From the NCBI RefSeq assembly GCF_023055435.1, contig NW_025964361.1, positions 57,784,001-57,848,000 on the forward strand: 64,000 nt of DNA. The letters are read 5' to 3'. The notes below the pieces were generated by a model that did no database searches, was not told the DNA's origin, and worked only from the letters and a program-made list of their open reading frames with translations. Of the stretch, positions 16,968 through 61,600 are shown piece after piece. This DNA comes from Haliotis rufescens. Taxonomy: Eukaryota. Both the position numbers and the translations under genes were made by a program. Within the stretch, counting starts at the first letter, position 1. Every line of letters starts with the position of its first letter.

Positions 16968-19900
16968 GTGAGATACATCTTACATACACGTGCCCTTCAG
17001 CTTAGGCAATCTTAGGAGGACATTATGATCTGTAGTTGATAAAACTGCGATATCTTGCATTAGGATGAGCAGGGATGTAAAGAAACTTCTTAACAGTTAA
17101 AATAATGTGAAAACCGTGTGTGCATTTGTCAGCGTTTATATATACCTGCTATTATACTTCTGCAACAACAATTTGGACATTTGTCAGTGTTTAATTAACG
17201 TGGGCTTTATCATGATCATGCTCGAGAGGTAAATTTGGAGATTATGTTTGTACTTTTGTCAATGCTTAATTACCGTATTCGACGTAATAAGCGCCTCGCT
17301 CTAATAAGCGCCCACGGCGATATTTCCGGATATATTAGAAGTGAACAATCCCAATTAGCAGCCCTTACGATTGATCAATGTACACAAGACTTATTTATTC
17401 GTGTATAATGCGCACTCGTGTGTTATATGCACCCTTAATTAAAGGTAATTAATTTTTGGAAAATGTATCTGTCGTGTAAAATACGCACAGACTTTTATTT
17501 TGTTTCATTTCAGGCTGTTAGCATAAATCATGAAATTTACGATCTTTCACCAAAATTATATTTTAATGAGACCCCTATTTCTAACTTTGAGAGCGCCATG
17601 GGCGCTTATTACGTCGAATACTTCTCCCCAGGTACATGCTCACCGGGAACTTTTGGTGATTCCTGCTTCTACTCCTGTCACTGTGGAGACTCCTGTGACC
17701 AGACAACAGGAGTTTGTGGAGGTGACTGTGATGCTGGTTGGGTGGGAGGAAGAGGAGAAAACTGTCAGAAAGGTATAGTCGCTTGCACACGGAGTTCGCA
17801 ATATAGCCACGTTTGATGACAACTTCACAGGCGTGGACCTGTCATAATATTTTGACATGCATTGTGATGGAACGAACATAGAGAAATTCGTCAAATACCG
17901 ACCTGTTGAATCACCAATCTGAACATGAATGCTTGCTGTTATGAATCTGTATGGCCTGAGGCTTGGGAAAACACATTACCGTTACAGGGTCTATTGTCAT
18001 GGGATACACTGGGGTTTTCATTTGTTTCAATGGAATTGGAAACAACATATAAGATTACAAATTCCAAAAATATAAAATTAAGTAGCTGAAATCAATGGTT
18101 AATTGTCATGGAAACCGGCACAAATAAACATTTCCAAAACTGCTAAATAACAAAAGTCATCGTTCATGGCCAGACTGAGATCTTTGAAAATGTTAATCAG
18201 GAAGTATTGAACGGTCTTTCAGTTATGGATGGAAGAACGGACAGACGCACAAATTCCCATACCCCCTCCTGCTTCGTGACGGGGGATAATAACTCCTTTG
18301 CATAAGAGCTGAACAAAGAAGAAACATTTCCGCCATACCCAAAATAACATTCAAACGTAACACAGAGTTCATCAATAATCAATAGTACATGTATCTTATG
18401 CTTTTGGTTCTGTGTTGAGTTGGACATTGCAGAGTGAACTGTAGGTTATAATTGCAGGTTTCAAGAGGCAAGCATGTTATCCCTGTAACTCAAATTGCAA
18501 ATTTTAAGGATGCATTAACACTGAATACTGTCTAGAATGAGTGAGTGATAATGGTCATAGGTCGCTATTAGCAATATTCCAGAATGTCAGAATATTAGGT
18601 GTGGTTGGCATCCATTTGCCTCATTCCTACGGTCCTCTCTCTGTGTTGTGCAGTTAAACGTGGCATATCTTTTGTGCCTTTGCCTGTGATGTTGTGGCAA
18701 CTATTCATTGCATTTTGTGCCAGTCCTGCACATGCATCATCTTGGCTGTTTTCTGATATCATTTGGATTTATTTCGTCAAATCCAATTTTCAAGTGCATA
18801 CTTTCTTTTACTCGGCAGTTTTATCAGGATCATCACATATCAGAATTAGACTACGCGTGACAGCAAGCATAAATGTTCACACCAAAAACTGTTGAAGTAT
18901 GCATTATTAATATACTCTTCAAAAGAAGAAAAGCACAGGTAGATTTTTAGTTGATTTATTTTACCTAATAAAGTCGATATATTTAATCTAATATCATAGA
19001 TACAAATATGAAATTTTGGAGCTCGATAGTCACATGTTGTCGTTGTACAAAGGCATTGAAAACTGTTCATTGTTCATCACATAAGGCCACAAGGTTGCGC
19101 TGAACTCAGTATCTCGTGTGACCGCCCCGGGCAGCAATCACGGCTTCGCATCTCCTCGGCACTGACTGGATAAGTGTACGAATTCTGTCCTGCGGAAATC
19201 TGCGCCATTCTGCTTATAACGCGTTGGCCAGATGTGGGAGTGCCTGCGGCGTGTACTGACGCTGACGTACACGTCGATCGAGTTCCACCTAGAGGTGTTC
19301 GATTGGGTTGAGATCTGGAGATCTCGACGGCCAGGGCAAGGCGTTGATGTTGGCATTATGAAGGTTGTCTACCGTGTTACGAGCTGTGTGCTGTGGAGCG
19401 TTGTCCTGTTGAAACAGCTCCCTCTGGCGGGAAGGAGGTGAGGTTGAAGAATTTGATTCATGTAGCGATTTGCTGTCATATTTCCCTGAACCACAACCAA
19501 GTCAGATCTCGTGGTATAGGATATGGCCCCCCAAACCATGACACTACCGCCACCGAATTTGCCGAATTTACGTACACAATGTGGGGCAAAACGCGCATTT
19601 CGTCGACGATAAACACGTTGTCTTCCATCTCTAAGGTGAAGAAGAAATCGTGATTCATCGCTAAACCACACTCATCTCCAGTTCCAATTCCAAGGCTGTC
19701 AGGTAAAGCACCAACGCAAGCGTCGCTGTCGATGGATCTGTTGCAAAACAGGGACGATCTTCTGGGTCGGATTCCCCTCGCGAAGATGGTTCCTGACAGT
19801 CTGGTCCGATATCCTCCTGAAACCAGGGATGCGTCCTGCAGTCTCCATAGCTGTTGCATTGCAATGACGTAGGTGGAACAGTCGAATGTAGGGTCCTATG

Positions 19901-22900
19901 CAGGGGAGGTAACTCTTGGTCGGACGGTTCTCGGACGGTCTGCAGTGGAATTGATATGTGTGTATCGGTCACAAAGGCACAATGGTGCTGTGGTTGACGT
20001 CAGGTCACCAACATTTTCCAATAGCATATATCCAATTCATATACCGGATTTTTTGTGAAGTCAGGTTGAACAACATACTACATGTGCGTTTCTTTTTTTG
20101 AAGAGTGTAATTTATAGGCACAATATCGACTTTAAGAAGACAAATGGCGGCCATCTTGAATTTTCGGTGGCTTACGATTTGTCTTCTTAGTTACCCAACG
20201 GCGACCAACCATACATCATTTATCATCATTTCACACCGCTCCACTATATAACAATTATTAAAAATAGGTTAAAATTAGAAGTGATTGCTCTTTTCATGCA
20301 GAAAACGTAGCCTACAATAAAAACGCAACATCTCCTTATCGACTGTTCCCAAGTGACCCTCCCTGGTCTGCAGACAACGCTGTAGATGGGAACAGGGACC
20401 AGGATGTGCAGGGAAACTCCTGCTTCCACTCTGCTGACAGCGTTCAAGCTGTGTGGACAGTGGACCTGGGACAGCAATACAGGATACATGACGTCAGGAT
20501 ATACAACCGGGCAGGATGTCAGTATTATACCCAATTTCATTGATTTTCGTATCTTCTTTTGTTACATGTACGTACATGAAAGATGGAGCAAACTTTTAAT
20601 GGGGTAACTATTACTTGTAATTATCTATTAACATTTAGCTCTTCAACAGCGTTGACGTGAAGGTACAATTGTAATTGTTATCTGAGACACACATATATGC
20701 ATGTGACACCAAAGATCATCTCTGGACTTTTGTATTTTATCTACCTCTATCTATATCTGTATACCATACATACCTACATCTAAATGCAGGAATATCGGGT
20801 AGACGTCGGGAAGGATTTTAATATACTGTAGGTACCTATGAAGGCAGAGTGTATAAAAGATTTTATTACCCACCACATGATTGAAACTTTTGTAGAACAT
20901 GTTCCTTGGGAGGTCAATGTCTGACATATTTAAAGTAAAAACCTGCCGAACTCAAGAAATATATTTTTTGGCGTATGTCATACTTAACTGCACATTGTCA
21001 TACACCCTAGGCGACTCATCTGAAATTTGGTTGGAGATACTGCTTAAATAATTATAGAAAGGTAGGCGCATCCTGCCCTACCGGTGGTGCAAGCGCGGGT
21101 GTTTACAAACACATGCATAGGCAAGTCAAGTGTTCTCCTGAACAAACAAAGGAACATATGGTACAAGTTAAAATATGGAAGTTCATCGGACATCCTTTTG
21201 GACAAATTTAGATATGTCCTCCACATGTCTAGAATAAAACGGGCCTTGAATGATGTAAACCTGATTAAACAACTTGTGAACCCCTTGAAATCAACTTTGA
21301 AAGAGCATACAATTACTGTTATGAAACGAGGAATCGTACAATATAACACTTTGTTTAGACATCCAGCATGTCATATGACATGTCAACTCAATGGAATTTT
21401 CCAAAACTAGTCCCAGCGTCCCCGAACCACTCCCCAACTCTAGAAGATCTAGAAGATCGTCCTTCAAATAATTGAAATTTAAGAGACACTGCTATTCTCT
21501 ATATTAACTTTAAAAGCACGAATAGGAATATAAAGCCTGATATTAACCACCCCATTTGTGATATAGTTAAGGACTGACTGTGTATTTCTTTCGGTAGATT
21601 GAGGCATGAATAAAACCGATGCCCAAACTGAGAGAATCCGTGTCTCGATAACGTGCCGGCTAGCAATGAACTCCCAAGACATGAAATGTGGGGCCTGGAA
21701 CCCAGTCTAGCGGGAAAAAACAGGCGAGCAAGCCTGCACGTTTTCTGTTTCATTCCTTCTCGGCCTTCGGCCTCAAAGGGTAGTTTTGACAATACATTTG
21801 CATGAATTTCGCTAAATGTCATGTGCGTGTTGATAAACGGGAGCAGAAAGGGAATTATCTTGACAGTAATATTGGGATTCCCCGACATCCCATAGTAATA
21901 AAAGTAGTCCGCCTTGTTGGGCGTGGCTTATTTTTTTACTTTCATTGGGAAATAATTGCAATAACACGTGACCAATTCATCTTATGAGAGTGCAGGAATT
22001 ACAATGAACACAACGAAAATTTAATTATTGCCAAATGATGGGTGTTTACATAAAAACTCATATTTCGGAAAACCATTAACTAAAGATTTAGTGAACGTTT
22101 TGCAATAGTGTTTGTGCACCTAACACCACGTCTGTGTATAAAGCCTAATAAAAGTAGTCCCTGCTTGGTAAACTCATTTGCATATATACTGGATCGTGAT
22201 TATTGGACTGGTTCATCGCATCGCTAACACTAACCATACATGCCCTAACAATACGGGAGCCAGAACAGGTTATACATTGTATGTTGAAAATAGAGATTAT
22301 CATAAGAGCATGTTTGTGTGTCATGGTTATTTTAGGAAACGAGTGTCAGAATTCTTGTATTTCCCGAGCGAAAGCGAGGGTAATAAAATTTCGTTATTGC
22401 CCAATATGTCTAAATCCGTTAGAGGCCACCTCCAGAAAAATGCACTGATCAGGATTGGCGTCTTAGAAAACAGGAATTGTCTAATGACGTCAAGAATCTT
22501 CAGCTATGACGTCGTTTCTAGTGTGACGTCATTCCGACCTTACATCACAATAAGATTCGCAAAACGTCAACAATTCCGTCCGGATGACGTTAACAATAGA
22601 CTGGTGCGCGTGAATTGATATTTGCACACATGCACATTCGATGTTTATGAACCCGATTATTTGTATCTCTATGGGGAACCAACTGGAACAGTGTTAAACA
22701 AATATCACATCATCATGATCTTACAGAAGGAACACACATATTTTTGTTTTTCCCTGACAGATGTCACGAGGATCCAGGAGGCTGTCCTGTCTTTGAGTAA
22801 CATCAGCTCCACACACGACACCACCTGCTACACCTTCCCATCCAACATCACAGAAGGCAACTCAGTCTTTGACGTGAAGTGTGACGGGAGGGCTAGATAT

Positions 22901-37378: not shown

Positions 37379-37483
37379 CCGTCAAACACGATATTCCAAA
37401 CAGAGGGCCGTTGTTTCCTTTACGGATAATTTGAAGCTAGACCCAATATACAGTATGTAGAATGTCACTAGTTCTTACCATTG

Positions 37484-37993
37484 AGTAAGTGAGTGAGTTG
37501 TGTTTAACACCGCTTTAAACAGTATTCGAGTCATATCAGCTTAATGTGGGAGTAAAGACTGAAGTGGTGCAGGTCTTAGACGTTTACCACTTCGGTGAAA
37601 CCCACGAGCACGGATATGGTGCTGACAAACCTAGAAACATAATCGGGGCGAACCGGGATTAAAACCCACAATCACAGGTTTCTGGCGTGCCCAAGGGACG
37701 CAACTCTGCACAGCGAATTGCGGCGCCTTAGACGACTGGGCCACCCGTGACCCCTATTTTTTAAGTAAGTGATATTAAGTCGCTATAAATATATTTATTA
37801 CAGTAAATTACGCTTACATGTATGTATTCATTAACACTTATATGAAAAGGCATTACTCATATTACATTTAACTAAAACACATTTAACCTACAAATATAAC
37901 ATAACGTGTGTGATCCTACCATATATCTCAACCTCGCACAAATTGAGGGTCGCTGTGTTGTGTGTGATGGTCAAGTAGCTAGCCCTCCCGTCA
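37484..37993 (-). pseudogene. Inverted paralogous copy of the A1 lectin exon b 3' end, intron and SINE
   Basis: Reverse complement of ~22883-23397. Encodes DGRASYLTITHNTATLNLCEVEIY with the donor intact. Confidence 0.92.
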
Positions 37994-38165
37994 TAGGTTT
38001 CTGGCGTGCCAAAGGGACGCAACTCTGCACAGCTAATCTTACCATGGATAGCCTTTCGTGTGGAACACATTGTGTTATCTGACAATACTCTGTATAACCT
38101 TAAACGCCATGTTAATATCACTCATGGGAGTTTATATGGACTAGCTACCCAACACCTCTAGTCTG

Positions 38166-43400: not shown

Positions 43401-43561
43401 GTGTAAAATAACAGGGAAATCCGATACATCACATCTCTGCTGGGATAGCGAGGAAATCATTCATCCCTGTTTAACTACCGCCTCCTTGTATCACAGTTCA
43501 ACTGAATTGATAATATGTTTTGTAAGGCCTGCCGGGTTATACCACGTCCTTGTTGTCCAAT

Positions 43562-43628
43562 ATGGCGGGTGTGAGGACACTGTTAGTATGGATAGTTGTG
43601 GCAGAGTGTTGGATACAGCTCATAAAAG
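43562..43628 (+). CDS. B exon 1, signal peptide
   Basis: MAGVRTLLVWIVVAECWIQLIK, donor AG|GTGAGT, phase 1. Confidence 0.8.
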
Positions 43629-46600
43629 GTGAGTTGATAGTTTAACCAGGTACTTAATGATAAGGATATCAACACAAACAGTACACAGTAATCGTATCTG
43701 GATAAATAAAGGCGTTATTAACGGTTTGATTGGCATTATTACCTCACTCGCTGAGATTATCTGTTGTTGATAACTACCATGCATGTTGAGTCAACACGGT
43801 GTTCATATCCTGGTAAATAAACTAATGCTTTGGCCCCTTTACTGGATAAACACTTTCTCTATCTGGGTACATAAAGCCGTTATAACCTCAACTCCTGGCT
43901 GCCTTCTGGGTTATATCACGACCTTGTTGTCCAATATGGCTGATGTGAGGGTACTGCATGTATGGACGGTTGTGGTAGAGAGTTGGATACTGTTTAATGA
44001 TACGTGAATAAGAAAAGGAAAACGTACAACTAAATAAAGGGTATGGATACCAACTTCTGGTTTATTGCATACAGCGACGTTTTGATGTAGATTCCTACAT
44101 CCGTACCAAGCTGGAGTGCCTACAACCAAGTGATTGCAGGTATATATACTTGCTATACAACAACAGGTAATAGATAGCAAGTAACCGAAGAACACTGACA
44201 ACAAATAGCACATAGGTTATGAACACAGGGGTAGTGAAGGGTATGTACAGTCAGGATAAGGATTAAAAGTACAAAAAAGTTGACAAGCTGACTGGATACT
44301 AATTAAAAAAAGGCGATATGTTATACTCTTGATCTCTGTTGATCAAAGGTTTATGACAGCAGATTACTTTAGCTTCTGAGTGTTTTCTTTTTGTGAATAT
44401 CTGATGTTTGGTTGAGAGGATTTGGACTTTGTCAAACTGAACTTGATGGCCAGGGAGTATTTGCTGGTGATCTGAGAGCTTTGATTTGCACTCTGCTTTG
44501 GCTGTTGAAGTCTTATGTTCTTTGATGCGGGTATCTACTGGGCGGGAGGTTTCAGTATACGAGTCACCACAGTCACAATTAATTTGATTGATCACTCCTT
44601 TGGGAGGCTGTTTGTTGGTGGGAGGGTTGCGGCCATTAGGTTGGAGGATGGTACTGAGGGATTGTGAGGCAGTGAAGATGATATCGATGACGGTTTGGCG
44701 CTTAAGTAATCTACTGATTTGATGGATGAGAAGTCTTGCCAAATGGACGCAGGAGTGTTCCCGAAGGAGCGGATTCAATTTCTGATCTGGTCGGTTTGGA
44801 TTAGATATTTCTGATATATCACTTTTCAAAATGTCCCCACACTCTTCAGCATCAAAAGCCTATGTTTGATCACACTTCCTCGTGAGTGAATGGATATGGA
44901 TTTTGTCGTATAGCAGTAGTTTTGCTGGGTGCGGCTTCAGACAACAAACAAACGATTGCTTGAATGGCAGGTAGAAAAGAGTATGAGTTCCCTTATCGTG
45001 AAAACCTCATGTCATAACTCATCCATTCATATTATCTTCACCACGATTATGCTTTTTACGCCCAATTGAATGTGTTTCGGCGGTTAATAGAGATTGATTA
45101 TTCTCTGGCTTTGACGTTTGAATTACACCGTCAGCATAGCGTATCTAGCTAGACCTCAATAGACAACAGATTCCGTTACTGATCCTGTTTGTCTGTTTAA
45201 TATTTACATCCACACAAATATGCTTTTATGTTTTATCTTTTATTTTTTCATATTTTACATAAATTGGTGAAATATCGCATATGTTAGTGTGTGTTTATGA
45301 CTATATGGGGACCTGGGTAAGAATAAATCCACAGCACTCTGTTGCTCAGTGTAAGAGTCGACTTGGAGTCAGGTTCTCGATCCCGACGAATCTCAATTAT
45401 CAACATTTGGTAGGTCTGTTCAAGACTCGATTATTTACCAGTCATTGTGGTATAGTTGTAATAATGCTGATTGTGGTGTAAACAAAGAACAAACCGAATC
45501 TGTATGACTAAACTCAGAACACACTAAAAAAAACATGGGGCAGGGGGTTATCACTGTACAACTAATAATTATTATCATTCATTCATTTATTCATTCATTA
45601 TTGTTTTTTTAGCGTTGTTTCACTTAGTGTAACCTTTTGTCTTGAGAATGGTGCGCAGTCTTTTAAAGAATAAGGTTGGGTAGATATAGATACACACTTA
45701 CAATGAGTTTTGATGTACATGTATATCCCCAACGCAAAGGATTCACTCACATACGCACACCAAAGACACACACAGACACACACGTACATATATATGTAAC
45801 GTGCTCACATATACATACCTACCGTGAGCACGTCAGACTGGGAATACCATGTCAACAATTCCTTAACTGAAGTTCGCAAGCATTACACTATTCTATTCTA
45901 AAGGTGCTCCCACACAATTCAACTCCTACAACATACGTTTGTAGTTGAACAAAGACATCATATATTTATTTACAATACTGAGCGTAGCATGTTGGTATAT
46001 TGTCGGATCCATTATTTTACACGGAACAGTTTGACGAGTCACCGTTTGAAGGTTCTGCGAACTTGCTTTCGAAAGCAATAGGTTGACATTTCATAGTCAA
46101 ACTGCAACAACCATGGTAGCACCTTTAGAATACAGTACCACAACTTCTCGCGAGGACGATCTCTGCCGTAGGTCACATGTCTCAAGACAAGCAACCAGTT
46201 TTAGTGAGAATCCGTCGGACGCAAACCCGCGACCTTCGGATTGTTAGCCTGACAGCTAACCGACTGAGCTACGCCCACACTGTTAAATTTACCTAGTCAT
46301 GCCTATGACGTTACGGAACTGAACGAAAAGGGTTGAATAGGTGACGGACTCTTACCAAGGTTACGGGTAGGCATGGTGTCTCGTGACTTTAGTATACGGA
46401 CACTTACGAATGATCCCGATGCCATTTGGCACACTCGTCCCATTCCATAATCTACAAACGGTGACTCGTCAAACTGTTCCGTGTAAAATGGATCCGACAA
46501 TATACCAACATGCTACGCTCAGTATTTTAAATAAACATATGATGTCTTTGTTCAACTACAAACGTATGTTGTAGGAGTTGAATTGTGTGTATTTAGATTG

Positions 46601-49600
46601 AAGCTCCAGATTGTTAATCAGACGGCCAGTGACAACTCGACATTCGGAGGACATTTCTAAATTTGACACAACAGTGACGAAAAATATGTCGGATGCAATT
46701 TACTATTTTGTCTTAATACGAGGACTGGTAAAAAGGTTCAAAGCCTGACTAACTTTCAACGATGGGCCATTACAAAGTGAACTAGTCAATGTAGTACATT
46801 GTTTGAGTAGTTCATTGCAAGTGTATTAAGTCTGTTGAGGCCGTTTGTATATTAGTGACAGACAGTTTAAAGTGCCCTGAGGTACACAGAAATGGAAAAG
46901 AACGAGTACCTAGAAGTCATCTAGGTTTTTAAGAATAGTTCTCCCCAAGAAATTCTCCCCGTGACCGCATGTCACGAGTGTATGGGGATAGGTGCCCTAG
47001 TTATTCCACTGTTTAACGTCTTGCAGCTATGTTAAAGGCTGTGAGAACAAGTCTTGCTGATGACCCTAGCTTGGACGTCCCTCAACTTCCTTCCACCAAT
47101 GAAGATAGAAAAACTTATCCTGTCAGATAGACGTATTGCCATTGCGGCACTTGAGGAATACACAGGTCCATGGAACCATTTAAACTATTAATAATGAATA
47201 TTTACAGATGAATAGGCTCGATGGGTGCCAAAGTTTCCAAAAAACTGACATAGCCAGAGAAAGGTTTGAGCTAATTGAGGAGGATTTCGTCAAATTTCGT
47301 GATCTACCATTATGATCCCGAGTTCAAAGGTCAATCCGTGGAATGGCACCATTCCACTTCTCCGGCACCAAAGAAACGCAAGTCTTCAAGATCAGTGCGT
47401 TATCGTCTGTAATATTTTATCAAAGAAAAAACGGCGAAGAAACTGACTGCTGGAGTTTCACTATTTCATGACAATACCTTTTCTGACACCTCTCGACTTG
47501 CAAAGGCTGCTGTGCTACAATGTGGCTTACTCACCCTTAATACTCGCAAGACCTGGCACCTTCGTGGGCAGCGCTATGACGACAACGATGACCTCAAAGC
47601 TGCCGTGAATGGGTTTTTCAGGGTGGCTTCAGGAAACTTCTTCCTGACTATAATTGAGTGAGTGAGTATGGTTTTACGCCGATTTTAGCAATATTCCAGC
47701 AATATCACGGCGGGGGACACCAGAAATGGGCTTCACACATTGTACCCATGTCGGGAACCGAACCTGGGTCTTCGGCGTGACGAGCGAACGCTTTAACCAC
47801 TAGGCTACCCGACCGCCCCCCTGACTATAATTGAAAGGCTTCACTATCGATATGAGAATTGTATTGAAAAGCAGGGAGATTATGTCGAAAATAAAATTTA
47901 AAAAACTTTCACAATTGTTGGTTTTGTTTGTAAGGCTGGAAATTTTTTGTACCTCGTACCACTTAACCACTTGATCCCGTGTTTTTTCCGGTGAACAAAT
48001 GTGTTTGTGCCACCGGTGATGCAGGATACCCTCACCTCTGCACAACACCTGGTATAATCACCTGATTGTGATTCATAAACATATGCTAAGTTTGTGACTT
48101 TATTTGAGCATTTGTTAAACATACAATTCATAACCATTGATTTTCCATTTTATTCAAGCGAACCTTTATATATTTCCAAAAGTAAGAAACTATTTCGACA
48201 ACCAAATCATCCTCCTAAATATACCTGCTTGATTGTTAAGGTATGTACTTGAACTACCACTTTTATGATGATCATGCCTTTATGCCTTTCTCAGGGTCCT
48301 GTCCAGCAGGGAAATTTGGAGACCTGTGTAGCTACTTTTGTCACTGTGGAAACGACTGTAACCGGACAACTGGGGTTTGTAGCAAGGTCTGTGATAAAGG
48401 CTGGGTGGGAGGACATGGAAAAACCTGTCAAAAAGGTATAGTGTTACAAATACATTTGATAAGCATGCGTTATTGAACTGGAAAATAATAAAGACAAATG
48501 ATTAAAAGATTAGGCACATTATTTCAAAAACAGTGTTCAGCAGTTTCTCAGTAATAGTTCACCTCCATGCATGCCAGGACAGCGACAGTTTGACCATAGA
48601 TCAAACATACCCAACGTGGCTAGGGGTTATGGAACGGTATTATTTACACGATATAACGTAGTACTGAGTTGAATAATGATAAATGGCATATTCAGACAAC
48701 AACAAGCCGACAAAGAGCCTGTGGGTGCCTAGTGATGAACAAGCTAGTCGGCTCGTCTTGGCGACGGCCGGATCCAAATCACCACATCAGTCAGATGTGT
48801 AAAGCTGTGTTGGACAACACATTATTAGCGATCGTATTCGTGTCAAAATATCAAAACACAATTAATTGCAACCAACATAAAAAAACAGGGAAGACTACGG
48901 GTAATTCAACTTTAATTTCCAACTAGTGATATTGTGTGTAGATTGCACATGTCATTCTCGACACTGACCTTCTTCGTAAACATCACTAACAAACAGTGTC
49001 AAGTAATTTATACCTGAATATATGCATGTGTCCCATATAATCCCGATAACGCATATCACAGTTGTATTTCTCAAAGGATTTATAATTATTGTATGAAGTA
49101 TGAACATCGAACAAACATTGTCTTTATTATGCATAACATGGGCCTACAACAGAAAGATTCTTCTCCTTCTGGACAGTATCAACCATTCTGGTAAGGTCTA
49201 GTCTTTGTATGACATGTCTTTGAAAAAATATTGAAACAGGAAACATCGTGAAAGGAAAATCAGCAACATCTCCTTCTGGAGTGTGGGATGCTGCATGGAC
49301 TCCAGACAAAGCTGTAGATGGCAACCGGGACCAGGATGTGCTCAACTCCTGCTTCCACTCTCTTTGGAATCAGACTCATGACAGCAACACCGTTCCACTA
49401 TATAACAAATATAAGAAATAGGTTAAATTGAGAAGTGTTTGCTCTTTTCATGCAGAAAACGTGGCCTACAATAAAAACGCAACGACTCCTTCTGGACTGT
49501 ACCACCATGACCCACCCTGGTCTGCAGACAAAGCTGTAGATGGGAACCGGGACCAGGATGTATTCCACAACTCCTGTTTCCACGCTGGTCGGTATCCGAG

Positions 49601-52600
49601 TGTGTGGAAAGTGGACCTGGGACAGCCGTACAAGATACATGACGTCAGGATATACAACCGGGCAAAATGTATGTGTACGAGACAAAAGGCTGCACTCATT
49701 TCTTAACAATGGGGTCGCATGGTTAGTCTAGTGGTTTGATCTTCACGCCGAAAGATCCAGGTTCGATTCCCCGCATGGGTACAATGTGTGAAGCCCATAT
49801 CTGGTGCCCCCGCCGTGATATTGCTGGAATATTGCTAAAAACTGCGTAAAACTATATTCACTCACCCATATAACAATACAATAATATTTATATTACCACA
49901 TGTCATTAAAATATTTAGGAAGCAAACAAAACAGTCTTTCAAAGCTAACAAGCTGCTCATTGTCTTTTCAATGGAGCTTTGACTGGTAAAGATTAGTATT
50001 TGGTTCATCGAATACAAACTATGAATTGGCGTTACAGAATGTGACAAATCTTTCCATTGACGGATGAATAGGTGGAAATGATTCGTCAAGTATCAATTAT
50101 TCCATGCACACCGATGAATGAATCCGTTATTTGGCATGTGTAATAACGCGAGTTCTCCTCGGAAAGGATGTTCATTCAACGCATTTGTTCTCCTGAAACC
50201 AATGGTATTGCAACATGTTTTATTTTAATAATATATGGTGAACATACGTATTCCGATACAGGCCATGTGATGTATATAGAGAGCTCTAAAGTTCATAGAA
50301 CTTGTTACATGATTTATTTGATACAATATGCAAGGATAAATCTTGATGCAATGTAAAGTGGATATTAAGGCAACTTCAACTAAAGTGAAACATCGCCGTT
50401 GACACGTATAAGTGATCAAAATAAGGCTTGAAAAAACCCATATATCCTCCATCTCATACCTATCTTTAAAATGATCATACATCGATCACGATTTTAGATA
50501 TTTTGAGAATCCGAACCGCTGCTCTATCTGTGAGTAACACAAGAAGCACCACGTCCATCGTCCCCTGCTACACCTTCCCCTCCAACACTACAAAAGGCAA
50601 CTCTGTCTACGACGTGACCTGTGATGCGATTGGACAATACGTCACCATCAAACACGGAACAGAGACACTAAATCTGTGCGAGGTGGAGATCTATGGTATG
50701 GGTTTATTGGTTTGACTTTATTCAGCTTACAACACATGTATGACGTCACTCGTCCGTGTAAAAAATCATTATTTGTTTCAGTTGTTTGCCAATTATTCCT
50801 GACTACGATATATTGACAAAAACATTTCTGCTTCGGTGACTTATGACAGTAGGTTTTGTAATTGGGTATTAAATATTATAAACAGTTGCATAATCATTCA
50901 AGGTTAACAAAATAGTGTGTATCATTAACACAACCAATAACGAGATCAATGTTAAAGTGATTAACCATTTGGTGCAAAAAACAAATAATTCCTACTGATT
51001 CCTATAACCAGAGTCAGCACATTCTCAAAACTTTACAAGTGTGCACCATGTCCACGCACACCGTATTATACTCACACCGTATGAATACAGAGTTTCCGGT
51101 TTATTATTCAAATATATCTCTACAAAATAATGTTTTGTCCATGATTTATGGTTGAGATGTATTTCAAGTTTGAGTAAATGGGGATGTTTTAAGTTAGACA
51201 CCATACTCGTATCTGGCAGCTCCAGAAACATTCTTACTCAGGGACCGACAGTTACTTGTATGTTCGTCATAACATTATGACAACTGTCAGGTGCATTGAG
51301 CTCATTATATTTTCTTATAAAAGACACTGCTTATAACATGCATCCATAACTGTATTTTTGAGTGAGTGTTCTTGGTGTCCTGGAGGTCATGGTGCCGAAA
51401 CCCGCTATGCAGAATTCCCCTTTGGTATATGGTAATGCTTGTTGTTTTGACAAATGACTTAACATGTTTCACCAATACTGACCCGTTTTCTGGAGGAAAT
51501 GCCCATTTCACAGCGAATCATAAAAGTTCAGTAGAGTGAAGTTAAAACTGCATTTGACAAGCTCAGTATATATATTTGTATTTTCATGTTTGGAAAAGTA
51601 TATTATTGCCCTTGGTTTAAAAATCTGGAAAATAAAGGAACCCAACTCGAGGGGATGCAAAAGATGAGGACGGGACTAAAAACATAACGTTCACACTTAT
51701 TCAACGCCAGTCAACCAGAAGCTTTTACTGCTGTGACACCGAGTTCCCTGAGACTCTTGTGTGATAGATGAAGCCAACATAAATTAAGAAAAAATATTTG
51801 CGTGTAATACATCTTTGCCACCACATGTAATACACCATTTGAAGGTCTAATCCTACTTTTCATAGATATGAAAGATAAGTTTATCACATAATTTAAATAA
51901 TGCATTAATGAAGTTCATTGTAAATAGAAAATTGTAAGCTTACACATTTATAACGTGCAGATTATGGACCAAGGAAGCGAAAATTTAACGATTTGCAGCA
52001 AATATAAGATTTCATAAAATCCACTTACCCATTTCGTTTTTATTTTCATTGTTTACGTAATCGGTAATATATTTAAAAAGAATTATAAATCGTATCTGTA
52101 CAGTATCACCCTTGTCCCGATAACAGCGGCTGTCCGCTCAGTAACATCAAGAAATACCTCCGTTTTCACAGCTTCCTATGAATAACACGTCCGTCGAAGA
52201 CTGCCATGTGACACATCATTAGAAAGCTTATTTTTGTCATCCATTCGATAGTAGCCTCACCCGGAGTCTTTTCGTTACTGTAACCTGCGATTTGATGGAT
52301 AAACTTTTGTTTCTAATGATGCTTTCTTGCCGAAATCGTGATTGGTCAAATTTGAGCACGTGACCCAAGGCGGCCAATAAAATTACAGCAATGTATGAAT
52401 TTCAGATTTTGACGAATGTTATTTGTTAAATCGTGTCATTCTGAACGTTTTAAGCAGGGAATCGCGCTATATAATAAAAATATTGAATTTCATCGATGTA
52501 TCGTTCTAAGTTACGACATGTGACAAAGATTTTTTATGCATATATTTTGGCATTGAACATCGTGAGCCCAAAAATCGAGGCGACGAAAGCCGAGATGTCA

Positions 52601-55600
52601 TTTGACTTATATTACACGCGATCGCGGGAGAAGATGAAATTAATAACTTAGATGTAAGTTTGACAACTTTTAGATATATTTTATATGTAATATATGTAAT
52701 ATGTATATATGTATGTATACCTTTGTATAGTTTATTTAAAGATATGTTTGACACGTCTTTATTTTGTTCTTTGACATGTGCGATGTGGACCCGTTATAGA
52801 AGTGTGTGTCCAAGAAAATTATTTTCAATAACATTGTGGAAAATAGTGAATAATTGTTTAACTTATCAATAAAAAATATTAATTGAAATGGAATACGTAT
52901 TTCAAACAGTGAAATGTGAGAGATTTAATAAATGAATGAAATGACAGGTTAGTTCATAAAATCCTATACTATTTTGGCGTGACTACGGCATGGGCATTCC
53001 ATCGGCCTACGGGGTCTGGAGCCTCGAGGCTTCTTGGCCGGTGTACCTGCTTACTGTGTTGAAAGATTTAAAGCTGACATCTTGCGGTGTGACTCACTCC
53101 AAATTTGTACTTCCAATCCGTGGTGCAAACACGAATTTCTGTATTTCTTTGTAGCAAGTAATATTAATGTTTTACATGTACGCGAGGAAGCGGAATGAAC
53201 TCTTTACTTTTATTTTCTATTTTTAGTCTGCAGTCAAGGAACTTTTGGCGCAGATTGTAACAATTTCTGTCATTGTTCTGTTGGACCCTGTGACCGAGTC
53301 AGTGGATTTTGTACTGGTAACTGTAGACCAGGGTGGCAGGGACAAAGCTGTTCTGTTGGTAAGGAAATAGTATAACTACTGTTGACATGCAACAATACTT
53401 TATGAGAATACGATTTGATACATCCTTGAATGAAAATAAACTTTTATCCCATGCTAGGTATTAATCTTAATATTTTATCAAGCCAAATAAGAAACGAATT
53501 CCTATGCCTTTCTTTATAAGGTTCTACCCGTGAAGATCCGGGGTAGCATAGATTTTCAGCAACCCATGCTTGCCGACTAACGGGATCGGGTGGTCAGGGT
53601 CGCGGACTTGGTTTACGCATGTCATCGAACCCAATTGCATGGATCAATGTTCATGATGTCAATCACTGGATTTTCTGGTCCAGACTCGATCATTTACAGA
53701 CCGCCGTCATATAGCTAGAAAATTTGCTGAGTGCGGCGTAAAACAACAAACCAAACCAAAACGTTATAAGGTTCAAAGCTATTTTCCCCTTTACGCCAAA
53801 TTTTAATCTGTTTCAGCGGATGATCTAGACTGGTTATTCTTTTGCACTGACAATCTATATTTCACAGAGTGTGATCGGGACCATTACGGAGTCAACTGTG
53901 ACGAGACGTGTGGGAACAGGAAATGTGCTGCTGATACACCGTCACAGATTGACTTAAAACTAGTTGTAGAACACTAAACAATTCTGAGTATTAAGGTACG
54001 ACAAAATATAAAAATGGGGCTATAGATCGCCAGCAACAAGGGTAAGATCACCATACTGGGGACCAAGGGGACTTACGGTACCTCTGCTACCTGCATGGTT
54101 CCCCAGCAGGATTTACACTTCCCCGAGTTACTGGTGATTATTGCGAGTTTAGCCAGATATTAAAAGTTAACAAATATTCTGCAGTTAAAATAGAGGTAGA
54201 TATAAATATACTTTGAAAGAGGTGGTCTTACATACCCTCTCAGGGGGACAATAATTTTACGCTGCTTCAACCCCCGTCGAGGGTATAGCCACGAACAGTC
54301 TCAGATACTAATTATACACTACCGATTTATAAAATACATAACTTTTTACATCAAAATTTGTGAATGAGATCTATATCTTTTAAAAAGTTAATGATTAAAT
54401 GTGAATTAACATTGCTAAAAAGGTCCTTCACTGTTTTGACAGTAAAATATTTATCCCTTGTGATGGAAAAATCAATACAGTCAAGCAGGACATGCTTGAC
54501 TGTGATTATCTCATCACAAGGGATACAAAACGGAGGATCCTCACCTTTTAATAAATATTCATTAGTATATCTACTATGGCCAATACGACATCGTCGTAAA
54601 ATGACCTCCTCAAATCTGGACTGACAACCCAAGTAGGTGTAACCGATATTTGGTTTAATTTGATGTAATTTATTGAGACCTACATGAGTGTCCCACTTCA
54701 TCTGCATTAGATCTCTGATGTAAGATCTAATGAGAGGTTTAAAATCACTGTATGGGATAAGAAGTGGTGTCACAAATTTGTTGAGTGCTGCTTTTGCAGC
54801 AGCATCAGCCATTGTGTTACCTTTTATGCCCATATGACTGGGTAACCAACAAAAGACGATGTCGAATTGGCCAGTTGAAAGATCATTGTAAAGTTCTATA
54901 ATATCTAAAATCAGTGGATGAGTCGAAGACACATTATTTAGTGCCTGAAGGCAAGAAAGAGAATCAGAAAAGATGATATATTGTTTACATGCAGACTGTT
55001 GTTGAATGTATATCAATGCTGTAAGAATAGCATTGGCCTCAGCAGTGAAAATAGAGCTATTGTCTGGTATTTTGAGGATATTATTTTTGATCCACCGACA
55101 GTGGCACTGTCTACTTTGCCACCATCCTTGGACCCATCAGTATAGATTGAATGGTGAGTGTCATATTTATTTCTTAATTGTAAATATTCCTGTTGATAGA
55201 ATAGCTGGTTAGTGTCAGATTTAAGATAACGTGTGAGGGAAATGTCTACTTCTGGCCTCACCAACTGCCAGGGAGGAGAAGGCAAAAGTCGGTAAGGAGA
55301 GATGATGTCCAGATCTAGATTTGCAGCAGTAATATGAGATTTGAGCCGAATTCCAAGTGGAGGAACCATCTTTGGTTTCTTCTGAAACAATTCTTCATAT
55401 AGGGGATTAAAAACGGAGTCATTAGCAGGATTTGAGGGATTGGAACGTAATTTAGTAATATACTGGAGAGACAATTTAATACGGCGTTGTTTTAAAGAGG
55501 GTTCATCAGCCTCGATACACAGGCTGTCAACCGGGGAAGTCCGAAAAGCACCAAGACAAAGTCTTAATCCTTGATGGTGGATTGAATCCAGTTTTTTTAA

Positions 55601-58600
55601 ATTACTCTTGCAAGCTCCAGCATACACAATGGAGCCATAGTCCAGCTTAGAGCGAATTAGAGATCTGTATAAGTGAAGAAGGGTTTTCTGATCCCCTCCC
55701 CACTTTGAGTTTGATACGACTTTTAGCAAATCTAAGGCCTTCAGGCATTTTGCCTTTAGATATTTAATATGTGGCAAAAAAGTTAGATGATGGTCGAAAA
55801 TTAATCCTAAAAAATTGGCTTCTTTTACAATCTTGATTGGGGTGCCATCTAAAAAGAGTTCAGGAACTTTATGAGGTTTTTATTTCCGACAAAAATGGAT
55901 ACAATTGGTCTTGGTGTGTGAAAACTTAAAGCCATTTTCAAGACACCATTTATGAATTTTATTAAGACACAACTGTAATTGGCCATGGCGTTCAATAGTG
56001 CGCATATTTTTACCACGACATGAGATATTAAAATCATCCACAAACAATGACCCATCAATTGAGTCATTTTGATAGACTATTTATTTTTATACTGAACAAT
56101 GTAACAGACAAGATACTGCCCTGTGGAACTCCCTGATCCTGATTATAATGATCAGACAAGGTTGATCCAACACGAACTTGAAATTGTCTGTCCGTTAAAA
56201 ACTGCGATATAAAATGAGGCAAACGGCCTCTTAAACCGAAGTCGTGTAAATCTTTTAAAATACCATGTTTCCATGTTGTATCATAAGCTTTTTCAAGATA
56301 AAAAAAGATTGATACAGCATGCTGGCTATTTACAATGGAATTTTTAATGAATGATTCTAAACGAACCAGATGGTCAATAGTACTTCGATTTTTGCGGAAA
56401 CCACATTGAATATTGGTAATAAGATTATTGGTTTCTAAAAACCATACTAATCGGTTATTGACCATGCGTTCCATGGTTTTACCAACGCAGCTAGTTAACG
56501 AAATAGGTCGATAATTAGATGGATCAGTATGATCCCGGCCAGGTTTTGGTATAGGGATAACAATGGCATTGTGCCAGGAAGGAGGAAAGTGTCCAGTTGT
56601 CCAAATATTATCAAAAATATTTAGAAGTGTTTCTAGACATGGATTGGGTAAATGTTTAAGGAGCTGATAGTGGATATTATCAGCTCCTGTTGCGGTGTCA
56701 TGAGCTTGCGCTAGGGCAGTATTGAGCTCATGTAGTGAAAATACTTCATTGTAGTCTTCACCGTTATCTGAATTAAAATTAATAGTTTTCTTTTCTTGTA
56801 ATTTTTATATTTCTGAAATTTGGGATTATAATTGGCTGATGAAGAGCGTTTTGCTAAAGTTTCACCCAACTTATTTGCGATGTCTACTTTGTCAGTTAGT
56901 AGACCATGATCATCTTTAAGATGATGAACGCCAGAATTTGAACCCTTCGCTTTGATTCTTTGTACCATGTTCCACACCTTTGTCATTGGTGTACGGGAAT
57001 TAATCTTTGATACAAAGTTTCTCCAAGACTGTCGCCGATTTTGTTTGAACGTACGTCGAGCCTTGGCACTATTTATCTTTACATTATTTAAATTGTGTAC
57101 TGTAGGGTGACGGCGAAAGTATTTTTCAGCCTTCCTCCTACTCTTCCTAGCCTGTTTGCAATCATCTGTAAACCGTGGTTTACGATTGCGAATATGTTGG
57201 TTAACAGAGGACTTTGGAATAGTTATATCAGCAATATTATTCAGATTGTCCGTGAACAACTGAATAGGGTCAGGGACATTGATAAAAATATCAGATTTTA
57301 ATTTGTCGGTACAAAGTGTTTGAAATAATGGCCAATTGGCCTTAGTAAAATTCCACCTTGTCGCAGGTGGATCATCAGTTGGGTTAATAGCTGAAAGAAT
57401 TGTGGGGAAATGGTCACTGCCACATAGGTCATCATGGACAGACCAATCAAATTCGTTATAAATGTTTGAATCTGTGAGTGACAGATCAAGTGCAGAAAAA
57501 GTTCCTGTAGCGGGATGTAAATATGTGTCGGAACCATCATTAAAGATGCATAAATTATTATTTGAAAGAAGTTTCCCTTTAGCATTGAAGTCTGTACTTC
57601 CCCATAGAGGGTTAAGCCCATTCAGATCTCCCATAATGATACAGGGTTTTGGAAGTTGGTCAAACACATTTTGAAGGTCAGACTGCTGAAGGGAGGAAGA
57701 CGGAGAAATGTACAAGGAGCACAATGTGAAGGTTATATGCAAAGAAAGTCTAACTGCAACAGCTTGAAGGTTGCATTTAAGAGAGAGAGGGCTATGGATG
57801 ATACCCTGCCTCACTAAAATAGAGGCATCGCCAGTGGCTTTATCTCCTGGAGGTGAAAAGCAATGATATGAAGTGTACCGACGAAGATCAAATTTATCTG
57901 TATTTTTTAGATATGTCTCTTGTAAACTAAAAGCTGATGGTTGTAAATCTTGTGTCAATAATTGAAGATCACTAAAATTGTTCCTAAGTCCTCTGCAATT
58001 CCATTGTATTAAATTGATAGACTGGCTCATGGAGGTTCAACTGGGGACCGTGGTCGTGTGGATGTGCCACTTTCAGGTACTGAATGAGAAGGAGCAACGT
58101 CCATGTCAAGTGGTTCAAACGAATTTTGAACCGTAACAGGAGCTGCCAAAGGAGATGACACCTCCAAATGTTGAAGAGCTTTGGTCCTTTTCTTTAGCTG
58201 TTTCTTTTGTGTTTTTGTGAGGTGAACAACACCCTGGACTATTTCACGAGAAGAATCAGTATCTAGGGTTGTTTCTGGTTGTGGCTCCTCAGTCTGGCTG
58301 GCTGAAGAACGTTGACAATGTTGTGAAATTTGTATGTTTTCATCTAAGTTTATCTGGGCTTCATTAATCCAAGATATCACTGTTTGGTAGGAAGTCGAGA
58401 CTGATGTAGATTTAGTAGGAGTGACTGGAGAAGAAGAAGAAATTGCAGCTGAATATGTTAGACTAGTGGTAGGTGCTGATTGTGCAGGAACTAATTTCTT
58501 TGCTTCAAAATAAGAGATGTTATTTTTGCATTTGAGTGTGATAATTTTGGTCTCATGTACAAAATTCGGACAGGATTTAGAAGATGCCACATGCTCACCA

Positions 58601-61600
58601 CTGCAGTTGGCACACTTCATGTCATTTGTGCATTCGGAGCTCTCATGAGTTCCACTGCAGCGTGAGCATCTTGCTTTGTTAGTGCAAGACCTTGCACCAT
58701 GTCCAAACCTTTGACACGTATAACATCGGAGTGGATTTGGTACATAGATTTCCACACCGATGTTACAATAACCTGCTTTAATGGATTTGGGAAGTGTTGT
58801 CAGTCCAAAAGTAAAAAGATATGTGTTTGTTTTGATAATGTTTGAATCCAGTTTCCTTGTAAAACGATTTACAGAGGATACTCCTTGTTCTTGTAACTCA
58901 GATACAATGTCTTCTTCTGTCATGTCTGAAAGACAACGCGACTAGTCTCTGACAATACCTCTACACGTATTCAGTGTCTTGTGTGCTGAAACAACAACCC
59001 GGGTGTTTACAAACTGCTGTAGACCCAGCAGATTGAGCGATTGTTGCCTCTTCATACATTCTACTAAAAGTGAACCGCTCCGGAGGCGAGTAACATTTTT
59101 AACGTCTCCGCAGACACCTTGGATGCCCTTTGATACAGCAAAAGGATTAAGTTTTAATGGACTACCATCTGCAGCTTCTATGACCAAGAACCTTGGCCAA
59201 GAATCCTTTCCTAAAGTAGATACTTCTTCATCATCATCAGAAGAAGATAAATGTCTTCTCTTATTTTCTTTGGATGAACCAGATTGTGAGTGTTGAGCCA
59301 TGGTATGAGAATAAGTTTCAGCAACCTTGCTCCCCACCCACCATCGAGTGTCAACAAGGACGATGTTGCAGTGGAAGCCAGACAGCAACACCAGGGTTAC
59401 AATGATGTTATACTCCAGAAATACAGACATAAATAGCCAAGAATTCCAAAAGAAGAAATGTCTGACTGGTTCGGCCCATGACAATATTCCCAAGAAACTC
59501 GGAATTCAGAGGTCTATATCACCAGATTGGCCCATGAGCCACCGCCTTCTAGCATAGGACTCTAGGCAAAAGTAACAATACAACAGTTTTGAAAATAAAG
59601 TTACAGTTTAACATTGGACATGTGATTCAAAATAAGAGATTGTCCATGCGCAGGGCATGACATGACCAGCCGATTGTTAGAATCGGGCCCATTCTATCAC
59701 CCGTCTAGGTGAAGTAAGGGTCGAAGTGGTGTGTTGGGCAAAAGGAACACTGTTCCTGGCTCCAGTGCCCTCAACCACCAGAATCCCGTCCTCCACCGAC
59801 ACAGGGGCGCAACCCACGGCAAACGGGTTGCCCAATTCGGTCGCCTCGTACGACCAGCAATGGGGTGCTGTGGACAAATTCTACCCCGAGTCCACACGGG
59901 GGAAGAGCTATTAGCGTTACCCAGCACTCACCACGAGGAGGTTGCTCTTCACGAGTGCCCACACTTCCATGGATATATCCCCATAAATATTCACGATCCC
60001 TATTTGTTTGTTGTATAGATCTACATATCCTCCACACCCGTCACCCTCGGCAATTAAACCATTTCATTTGGCCCCTCTTAAGAAGGTGTCATATTGTCTC
60101 TCACTGGTCATTGAGCCTTAGGTAACATCTCTCAACAGCATGCTATAGTACTTCAGGGATAATTTCGTTTATTTCTTATAGACATGCTGGTGTACTTTCT
60201 TGACCACTGGGTATCTATTCCGGTGCAATATAAAATTAGATAAATAGTGTATGTACAAGTTGATCAGTACGTCAGTATGTACGTGCTACAATTACAATAA
60301 CAGAGCTATAATGTTATTGTCAGGGAACGTTTTATATGTGCCCAATATTGGGTATATCTTTACAGAATGTTCCCTTGGGACCTATGGACAAAACTGCAGC
60401 AAGCAATGTACTCAGAGGAATTGTGCAGGAAACTCGTCATGTGATCACGTTACAGGAACATGTGTTGCCGGATGTAAAGCAGGTTGGATGGGCAAAGACT
60501 GTGTGGAGGGTAAGGGCTTAAATACCATCTGTATGTAAAAGAACTTTGTGTTGTAAAGGCTCTATACAATGCGGGAACGCCGTTTCCAGAACTTTACATA
60601 CCACACTAGTATCTAAATAAAGTAACTTCCTGATGACTGGTAGATTAAATAGTACTACGTCCCTGACAACTAATCACTGCCCAAATACAATGCAGGGAGC
60701 GTCTACCGAATCTTTCCAGAAATAATATAACACAGTTATTATCATTGTTAAACAATAAAATACACTGCCATGAAACAGAACGTCAAAATGTGCATGCCAT
60801 AATCACAGTAACAGAGCTATAGTGTTATTGTCGCGGTGCGTTTTATATGTGTCCAATAACGACTTTATTTTAACAGAATGTTCCCTTGTGACCTATGGAC
60901 AAAACTGCAGCAAGCAATGTACTCAGAGGAACTGTGCAGGAAACTCGTCATGTGATCACGTTACAGGAACATGTGTTGCCGGATGTAAACCAGGCTGGAG
61001 GGGCAAAGACTGTGTGGAGGGTGACGGCTTAAAGTCCATCAATTAGTGCATTATGTCATCAAAATGTATTTTATTCCGGTTCAATATAAAAGTAGTTAGT
61101 GTATGTAAACGTTGTCAAGTACTGTTGGATCTACATGTCCACTACACCTGTCACCCTCGGCAATTAAACCATTTCATTAGGCCCCTCTTAAGAAGGTGTA
61201 ACATTGTCTCTCACAGGTCATTGAACCTTAAGTAACATCTCTCATCAGTATGCTATAGTACTTCAGGGATAATTTCGTTTATTTCTTATAGACATGCTGG
61301 TGTACTTTCTTGACCACTGGGTATCTATTCCGGTGCAATATAAAATTAGATAAATAGTGTATGTACAAGTTGATCAGTACGTCAATATGTACGTGCTACA
61401 ATTACAATAACAGAGCTATAATGTTATTGTCAGGGAACGTTTTATATGTGCCCAATATTGGGTATATCTTTACAGAATGTTCCCTTGGGACCTATGGACA
61501 AAACTGCAGCAAGCAATGTACTCAGAGGAACTGTGCAGGAAACTCGTCATGTGATCACGTTACAGGAACATGTGTTGCCGGATGTAAAGCAGGTTGGATG

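Follow-up and report, generated by a model that had tools for sequence, protein, structure and literature searches.

The abalone lectin receptor array and the additional lectin exon of gene B

A 64,000-nucleotide (nt) window of the abalone Haliotis rufescens genome (contig NW_025964361.1, positions 57,784,001 to 57,848,000) carries part of a tandem array of lectin receptor genes, one of which, gene B, has a truncated additional lectin exon at 49240 in front of its intact one. This exon is probably a repair scar, left when the intron end and 5' lectin exon of a paralogue were patched in, with the block later copied to gene B. Table 1 lists the features; window-extended coordinates continue the window's numbering past 64,000, C583 denotes the window's own contig, and C334 and C279 are other contigs. 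The gene plan of the array comprises a signal peptide, an EGF domain, an F-type lectin domain encoded by exons a and b, further EGF repeats and a transmembrane segment, with two phosphatase domains at the end in many genes. Genome-wide, at least 52 matches resemble exon a. Clade labels are our own and are taken from the first residues (NIAKGK, equal to D/E, and NVAYNK).

Table 1. Coordinates of array genes, gene A donor-side features and gene B features.
Feature	Position	Strand	Remark
Gene A	16904-37375		two lectin domains
Donor side, left part of gene A intron-2 segment	18843..18912	+	match at B/C junction
1.2-kb element with 32-nt terminal inverted repeats	18911..20109	.	gene A only
Donor side, A1 intron end	20110..20301	+	84% to gene C over 218 nt
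Exon A1a	20302..20517	+	closest relative of 5' part of intact B and C exons
Gene B	43562 to ~78800 (window-extended)
Gene B exon 1, signal peptide	43562..43628 (end approximate)	+	tblastn of NCBI model P0001
Gene B EGF exon	48295..48435	+	102/141 nt identical to gene C
D/E (NIAKGK)-type intron end, start of block common to gene C	49108..49239	+	81-87% to six D/E-type genes
3'-truncated lectin exon a, D/E type	49240..49376	+	acceptor kept, no donor
Left junction	49367..49376	+	10 nt alike in resident exon loop and gene A intron 2 (18843-18852, 9/10)
A-type intron 2 remnant	49378..49386	+	matches 18858-18866; then ~140-nt deletion relative to gene C
A1-type intron end and acceptor used by annotated model	49387..49455	+	contains TAG 49419-49421, in frame for read-through from 49240
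Intact lectin exon a	49456..49668	+	213 nt, AG/GT, phase 1-1; used in P0001
Gene B lectin exon b	50498..50695	+	141/192 aligned nt identical to gene C
Gene B EGF exon, cut by insertion	53869..53944	+	NCBI model ends just behind
~6-kb non-LTR (long terminal repeat) retrotransposon interrupting gene B	53945..59950 (right end approximate)	-
Gene C	~87200-109000 (window-extended)
Gene D	120005 to ~146000 (window-extended)

The lectin domain is assigned to the F-type both by sequence (phmmer matches to 3cqo, E 6.6e-18, and 1k12, E 2.7e-14) and by fold, where 1k12 is the top Foldseek match (E 4.7e-10) to a predicted model with a mean predicted local distance difference test score of 58. The cation motif of F-type lectins, given as h2DGx in the sections of PMC5712786 drawn on here, appears as AVDGN in the intact exon of gene B and as DG[ND] in 41 of 41 full exons. 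A His-Arg-Arg triad is found in all five models checked, with a His-Arg spacing of 25-27, and deviates from the fucose motif HX24RXDX4(R/K) in that five residues separate the arginines and the motif's acidic position holds no acidic residue. Alignment to eel agglutinin indicates that the loops termed complementarity-determining regions 1 to 3 (CDR1 to CDR3) are all encoded by exon a, a phase 1-1 exon whose length is divisible by 3 in 40 of 41 cases, the sole exception being a mis-set end.

The original prediction described a divergent exon a that starts at 49240, breaks near 49387 and gives way to the intron end of A1 (~20234-20301), followed by an intact exon a. The start is retained, with an AG in front of position 49240 and 45 lectin-like codons in the truncated exon. 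The break moves upstream, as exon homology stops at ~49376 and 49367-49387 aligns to gene A intron 2 at 18843-18866, so that A-type sequence begins at ~49367; position 49387 marks where a later deletion in gene B ends. The switch itself is well borne out, with 84.7% identity over 287 nt between 49387-49670 and 20233-20519 (E 2e-85) and 61 of 68 identical positions in the intron end, and the exon that follows is indeed intact. Inspection of this exon reveals that it is itself a mosaic, A1-type in the 5' part that includes CDR1 (96% identical to gene C up to CFH) and D/E-type from the loop after CFH to the 3' end. What was thought to be a different sugar-binding half-domain is thus mainly a changed 5' part of exon a, not a whole half-domain, and, compared with the resident loop, the new CDR1 has two additional residues.

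The gene B junction is real and not an assembly chimera. Four short-read contig runs were compared, one of which, X1, may be the assembly's own sample. A contig of X1 crosses 49342-49433 with 0 differences (record 6), and contigs of X14, which carries another organism label and comes from another study, cross 49329-49531 (record 12, 4 differences) and 49329-49458 (record 13, 10 differences). Run X3 has a hole at 49376-49511, yet covers 48900-49142 without differences, and run X7 covers the stretch with no bridging piece among those listed; both are counted neither way. A chimeric assembly of two paralogues, against which the original prediction had cautioned, could be read from the X3 hole, but a gap in filtered contigs proves nothing, it is unlikely that both bridging runs come from the assembly's own sample given the organism label of X14, and a longer, diverged form of the junction is present in gene C, 87% identical in the intron end. 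We regard such a chimera as extremely improbable. Joints between 49280 and 49518 were considered as a deletion allele and rejected, since they derive from intact D/E-type paralogues and their 15 intervening letters match the C279:2318586 type.

Gene C and the anatomy of the patch

Gene C, the paralogue 43 kb downstream of gene B, presents the same arrangement within its full context. Its order is D/E-type intron 2, truncated D/E-type exon, a 62-nt repeat, A-type intron and intact exon, after which the sequence is again D/E-type through intron 3, exon b (85-91%) and the next EGF exon (92-93%). The A-type stretch is confined to 92128-92554 (window-extended), flanked by D/E-type sequence to the left of the junction (75-76% over ~1 kb) and to the right of the exon (72-83%). 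The two acceptors lie 428 nt apart in gene C versus 216 in gene B. The 62-nt fragment belongs to a high-copy repeat (40 scored of 1527 candidates) that in our own reading may be SINE-like (short interspersed nuclear element).

Since both flanks are D-type in gene C, the A1-type piece is an inserted patch and not the product of a one-step fusion. The original prediction had invoked a non-allelic recombination or deletion in gene B: the paralogous source stands, and the single crossover or deletion falls with the gene C flanks. Viewed alone, without its paralogues, gene B does change from D/E to A type, as would follow if one non-allelic event had fused a D-type 5' part to an A-type 3' part, and five genes on C279 look like such fusions, each being preceded by a dead EGF exon and a dead exon a from another clade. 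The return of gene C to D/E type, the lack of an A-type intron 3 in both genes and the second, reverse crossover that would be required within the same exon make a one-step origin improbable here.

Sequence matching the A-type intron end with its acceptor is found in three of eight genome matches (A1, C and B); the remaining five are 62-91-nt matches to the inner repeat-like part only. In gene C, a 19-nt filler matches gene A at 18859 in 16 of 19 positions, which is the best non-self match in 204 kb and is reached in 0 of 1000 shuffles, and the gene B junction score (49367-49387 versus gene A) is reached in 9 of 300; these comparisons to gene A intron 2 rest on local alignments. Because the source of filler and junction lies to the left of the 1.2-kb element in gene A, which may be Tc1/mariner-like, the patch resolves into intron sequence of ~70 + 190 nt and the 5' exon. 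That is to say, ~260 nt of intron and at least 72 nt of exon come from an A1-like gene on the same contig, where A1 itself is intact. The donor sequence is intronic, and a spliced RNA intermediate is therefore excluded. At the patch ends we observe a 9/10-nt microhomology on the left and repeat-derived filler in gene C, with no poly(A) or target-site duplication. As read from its sequence, the patch fits a capture of the type attributed to synthesis-dependent strand annealing (SDSA), a short copy of a linked intact donor with microhomology, filler and deletion at its ends. For the empty site, the comparison used paralogues, gene D and the C279 genes. Site painting places the switch from A to D/E type within the intact exon earlier in gene B than in gene C, and the loops after CFH are nearest to different paralogues (C279:71828 for gene B and C583:57967762 for gene C, both 83%), which suggests later small exchanges.

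Comparison of genes B and C addresses how the block reached gene B. The two are identical at 123 of 128 positions in exon a up to CFH and at 59 of 68 in the intron end, with lower identity in the flanking EGF exon and exon b (Table 1), and D/E-type sequence in gene B is confined to 49108-49680. A tree of signal peptide, EGF and exon b, built from 19 proteins (one per gene of 35, isoforms and partial models excluded), joins C with D (support 99/96) and rejects both B+C (approximately unbiased test, p-AU 0.0018) and B+C+A1 (p-AU 0.0029). In the exon-a tree, B and C are nearest to one another (83%, 80/85). Because the gene B flanks are not C-like, gene B likely received the block second-hand, in a second, ectopic transfer. 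The 68-nt intron end holds similar numbers of B-, C- and A1-specific changes, and both transfers would therefore be old and close in time. The upstream intron at 48440-49110 has itself as its sole genome match, and an orthologue search with gene B exon b returned seven proteins, the best non-self match being 76% over 69%. The flank tree does not fix the place of gene B, and it is accordingly no more than a lead that H. rubra or H. asinina proteins may show its native exon a. A remnant ~80% like gene B exon 1 and intron 1 (43501-45715) lies between genes C and D at 112953-115089 (window-extended), and no lectin exons were found there.

Use of the truncated exon and its proposed history

The truncated exon is likely a dead pseudo-exon. 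Nine GT dinucleotides lie between the two acceptors of gene B, none of which is a phase-1 donor before the TAG at 49419; with no usable donor and a stop, the truncated exon of gene B is, by its sequence, no alternative exon. Its gene C counterpart lacks the DG[ND] motif, and the single NCBI models of the two genes (P0001 for B and P0002 for C) join the EGF exon straight to the second, intact exon. The reading frame, which had been thought preserved, is so through the new acceptor and not by read-through from 49240. Acceptor strength is uninformative, for the pyrimidine content of 0.41 versus 0.56 falls within a range in which working acceptors reach down to 0.37. A protein search with the truncated exon gave two candidates, none at E 0.001, which is weak evidence.

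These results bear on the other option raised at the outset, in which the pair would represent mutually exclusive tandem lectin exons, surviving as a remnant or still in use. Exon a has a 1-1 phase, an NCBI isoform of gene A (P0005 versus P0029) skips it in frame, the 49240 acceptor resembles working D/E acceptors, and a locus at C334:887k has two full-length in-frame exons with AG/GT borders 105 nt apart. Gene B, however, has no in-frame donor before its stop, gene C has lost the DGN calcium motif, and the two exons differ in a way not expected of tandem duplication in place, as their intron ends are unrelated and their 5' identity across clades is 57-59%; at C334 the first exon is moreover substituted at sites invariant in 24 proteins (the S before CFH is P). 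A Dscam-like pair needs an acceptor, a donor and an open frame for each exon, a set that is incomplete in genes B and C and, by sequence, complete at C334:887k. We therefore hold a tandem-exon origin of the gene B and C pairs to be very doubtful.

For the repair scar that we favor, the following history can be proposed. A D/E-type ancestor of gene C would have broken within lectin exon a, and repair synthesis may have copied an A1-like paralogue from within the exon back through ~260 nt of intron 2, one end being resolved by homology inside the exon and the other at the 10-nt microhomology. The product is observed: resident 5' exon, donor intron end with acceptor, mosaic intact exon and resident intron 3. 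Given the 1-1 phase of exon a and an acceptor supplied by the patch itself, splicing would then skip the donor-less resident piece, such that the receptor keeps a whole lectin domain with the longer CDR1. In a further ectopic conversion, the block 49108-49680 would have moved into gene B, after which C may have gained the 62-nt repeat fragment, B lost ~140 nt and A gained its transposon, and the loop after CFH may have been exchanged again in B, C or both. Gene B is also cut downstream by a LINE (long interspersed nuclear element) and a 3' inversion, leaving gene C as the intact carrier.

Several observations weigh against this history. Genes B and C differ in their right-hand switch, which is not exactly placeable, and the donor may be a lost A1-like paralogue. 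None of the 52 genome matches is an intact copy of the resident exon, which the original prediction had proposed to seek among the paralogues, the closest being C279:71828 (88% in the 5' part), so that the resident parent is only inferred. The exon-a tree does not reject C within the D/E clade (p-AU 0.08), and gene B introns outside the block match nothing compared, which leaves the ends of its tract unmappable. Decay of the truncated exons is not significant (11/117 versus 5/126 differences, Fisher p 0.12), their ratio of nonsynonymous to synonymous substitution rates (0.64 versus 0.41) is no proof of decay, and the gene B copy retains W, DGN and CFH. Read-through in gene C meets no stop for 141 codons, a stretch that includes a single weak phase-1 GT. 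The NCBI models are themselves predictions.

Recurrence, known systems and the fate of gene B

A similar arrangement is found at C334:887.5-888.1k. The left flank and the start of the first exon are of C334:762636 type (90.7% over 1059 nt), the middle is of C334:72144 type (91.4% over 339 nt), and the right flank is again of 762636 type (90-93%). The first exon (887529) is full length (207 nt), with AG/GT borders and an open frame; its 3' end is donor-type, and conserved sites carry substitutions. The locus is to be read as a second, independent resident-donor-resident patch. It also displays the permuted order that would result if a small circle or tandem donor duplication had recombined into a resident exon, namely a resident 5'/donor 3' exon, the donor intron-3 start joined to the donor intron-2 end, and a donor 5'/resident 3' exon. 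For genes B and C, such a route, followed by loss of the 3' end of the first copy, is unlikely: no donor 3' exon or intron 3 lies behind the truncated exon, which is joined directly at the microhomology, and even at C334 the switch points are ~80-100 nt apart, unlike one clean crossover. As reciprocal mosaics of two paralogue types, the C334 exons (887529-888060) form the family's best candidate for alternative use or circle-type insertion.

Five C279 genes (75056, 102416, 134473, 2315731 and 2334856) carry a dead EGF exon and a dead exon a of a third clade ~3 kb upstream, with a 5' end from one clade and the rest from the C/D clade; judging from the one examined in detail, they are more like gene fusions than patches. 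In total, an extra upstream exon a accompanies at least 8 of the 51 lectin domains examined, in three events, a lower bound because the flank examined was no more than 1.5-4 kb at many loci. A recurrent germline patching of exon a as a cassette, in which the C334 pair would be spliced mutually exclusively to give two sugar specificities per gene, has little probability in our estimate. If true, C334-like pairs would show one way in which alternative recognition exons of the Dscam type are born.

That tandem arrays undergo ectopic repair and conversion is already well known, and the abalone case is explained by this known class of process. In one-sided invasion, or coupled homologous and non-homologous repair, an ectopic template is used at one end and end joining at the other, as proposed for the abalone patch. 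That process is defined from induced breaks in cells, in contrast to the abalone case, which is read from a fixed germline product.

Repair-mediated duplication by SDSA, in the parts of Pace et al. 2009 consulted (PMC2671141), captures nearby DNA of up to ~600 nt at a break, and the likeness extends to microhomology, filler and deletions at the ends of a short capture. As described there, donors are mostly within 5 kb and unrelated to the site, whereas the abalone donor is a paralogue at a distance of tens of kb; the two whole exons captured there are unconstrained, whereas here an acceptor and half exon replace the resident; and the abalone event resolves one end inside homologous exon sequence. 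Oyster bindin, in the portions of Vasta et al. 2017 used here (PMC5712786), likewise has a two-exon F-type domain whose halves are recombined into new sets of binding loops. Bindin recombines in the mid-domain intron, while the abalone genes switch before and inside exon a and retain a scar, and bindin is a sperm protein, unlike these EGF, transmembrane and phosphatase receptors.

In domain content, the family resembles the Biomphalaria LG5R 'scavenger class F-like' receptors 1B/1C, which the sections of PMC13712769 used here present as clustered single-pass receptors whose ectodomain combines fucolectin and EGF-like parts and which in some cases have two phosphatase-like domains. The same sections describe the region as structurally unstable and associated with schistosome resistance, and the authors invoke unequal crossover and conversion; those sections describe no exon-level replacement. 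Our searches found no description of the abalone receptor family, no paper joining F-type lectin, abalone and tyrosine phosphatase, and nothing relevant on an abalone lectin receptor with exon shuffling and gene conversion, subscription journals and supplements lying outside the search.

It is plausible that the patch changed sugar specificity. Fine glycan specificity has been proposed to be set by CDR1 (PMC5712786, same portions), and genes C and D are therefore a natural pair in which to compare the effect of the swap. The locus offers an unusually readable record of loop swapping in invertebrate recognition receptors, as one can name the donor and the resident clade as well as the junction and the later spread, and it does so for a pattern that recurs independently, in a family resembling snail receptors that have been associated with resistance to parasites.

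In this assembly, gene B probably does not encode a working receptor. Open reading frames in the inserted element include endonuclease-, reverse transcriptase- and RNase H-like stretches (read by eye), the last phosphatase exons are inverted just past the window (76498-78486, window-extended), and P0001 comprises 286 residues with no membrane anchor; the intact carrier, gene C, encodes P0002 of 1093 amino acids. Retrotransposons related to the inserted element adjoin lectin exons on C334. Behind the gene B insertion, at 59957-63257, EGF exons have undergone recent tandem multiplication; the blocks reach 96% identity, and one of them is broken.

Further rearrangements mark the rest of the array. 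Exon A1a is missing from isoform X2 in the NCBI models of gene A (P0005), an in-frame skip after which half a lectin domain remains. Tandem arrays of 74 bp derived from an EGF exon 3' end follow both gene A lectin modules (23663-25195 and 34493-35196), and a ~90% inverted copy of the exon A1b end with its intron (22882-23400) lies just beyond gene A at 37481-37998. Genes C and D (85000-111000 versus 118000-148000, window-extended) are 88-93% identical over most of their length and 72-83% identical in introns around the lectin exons, a pattern of homogenized backbone and divergent binding module.

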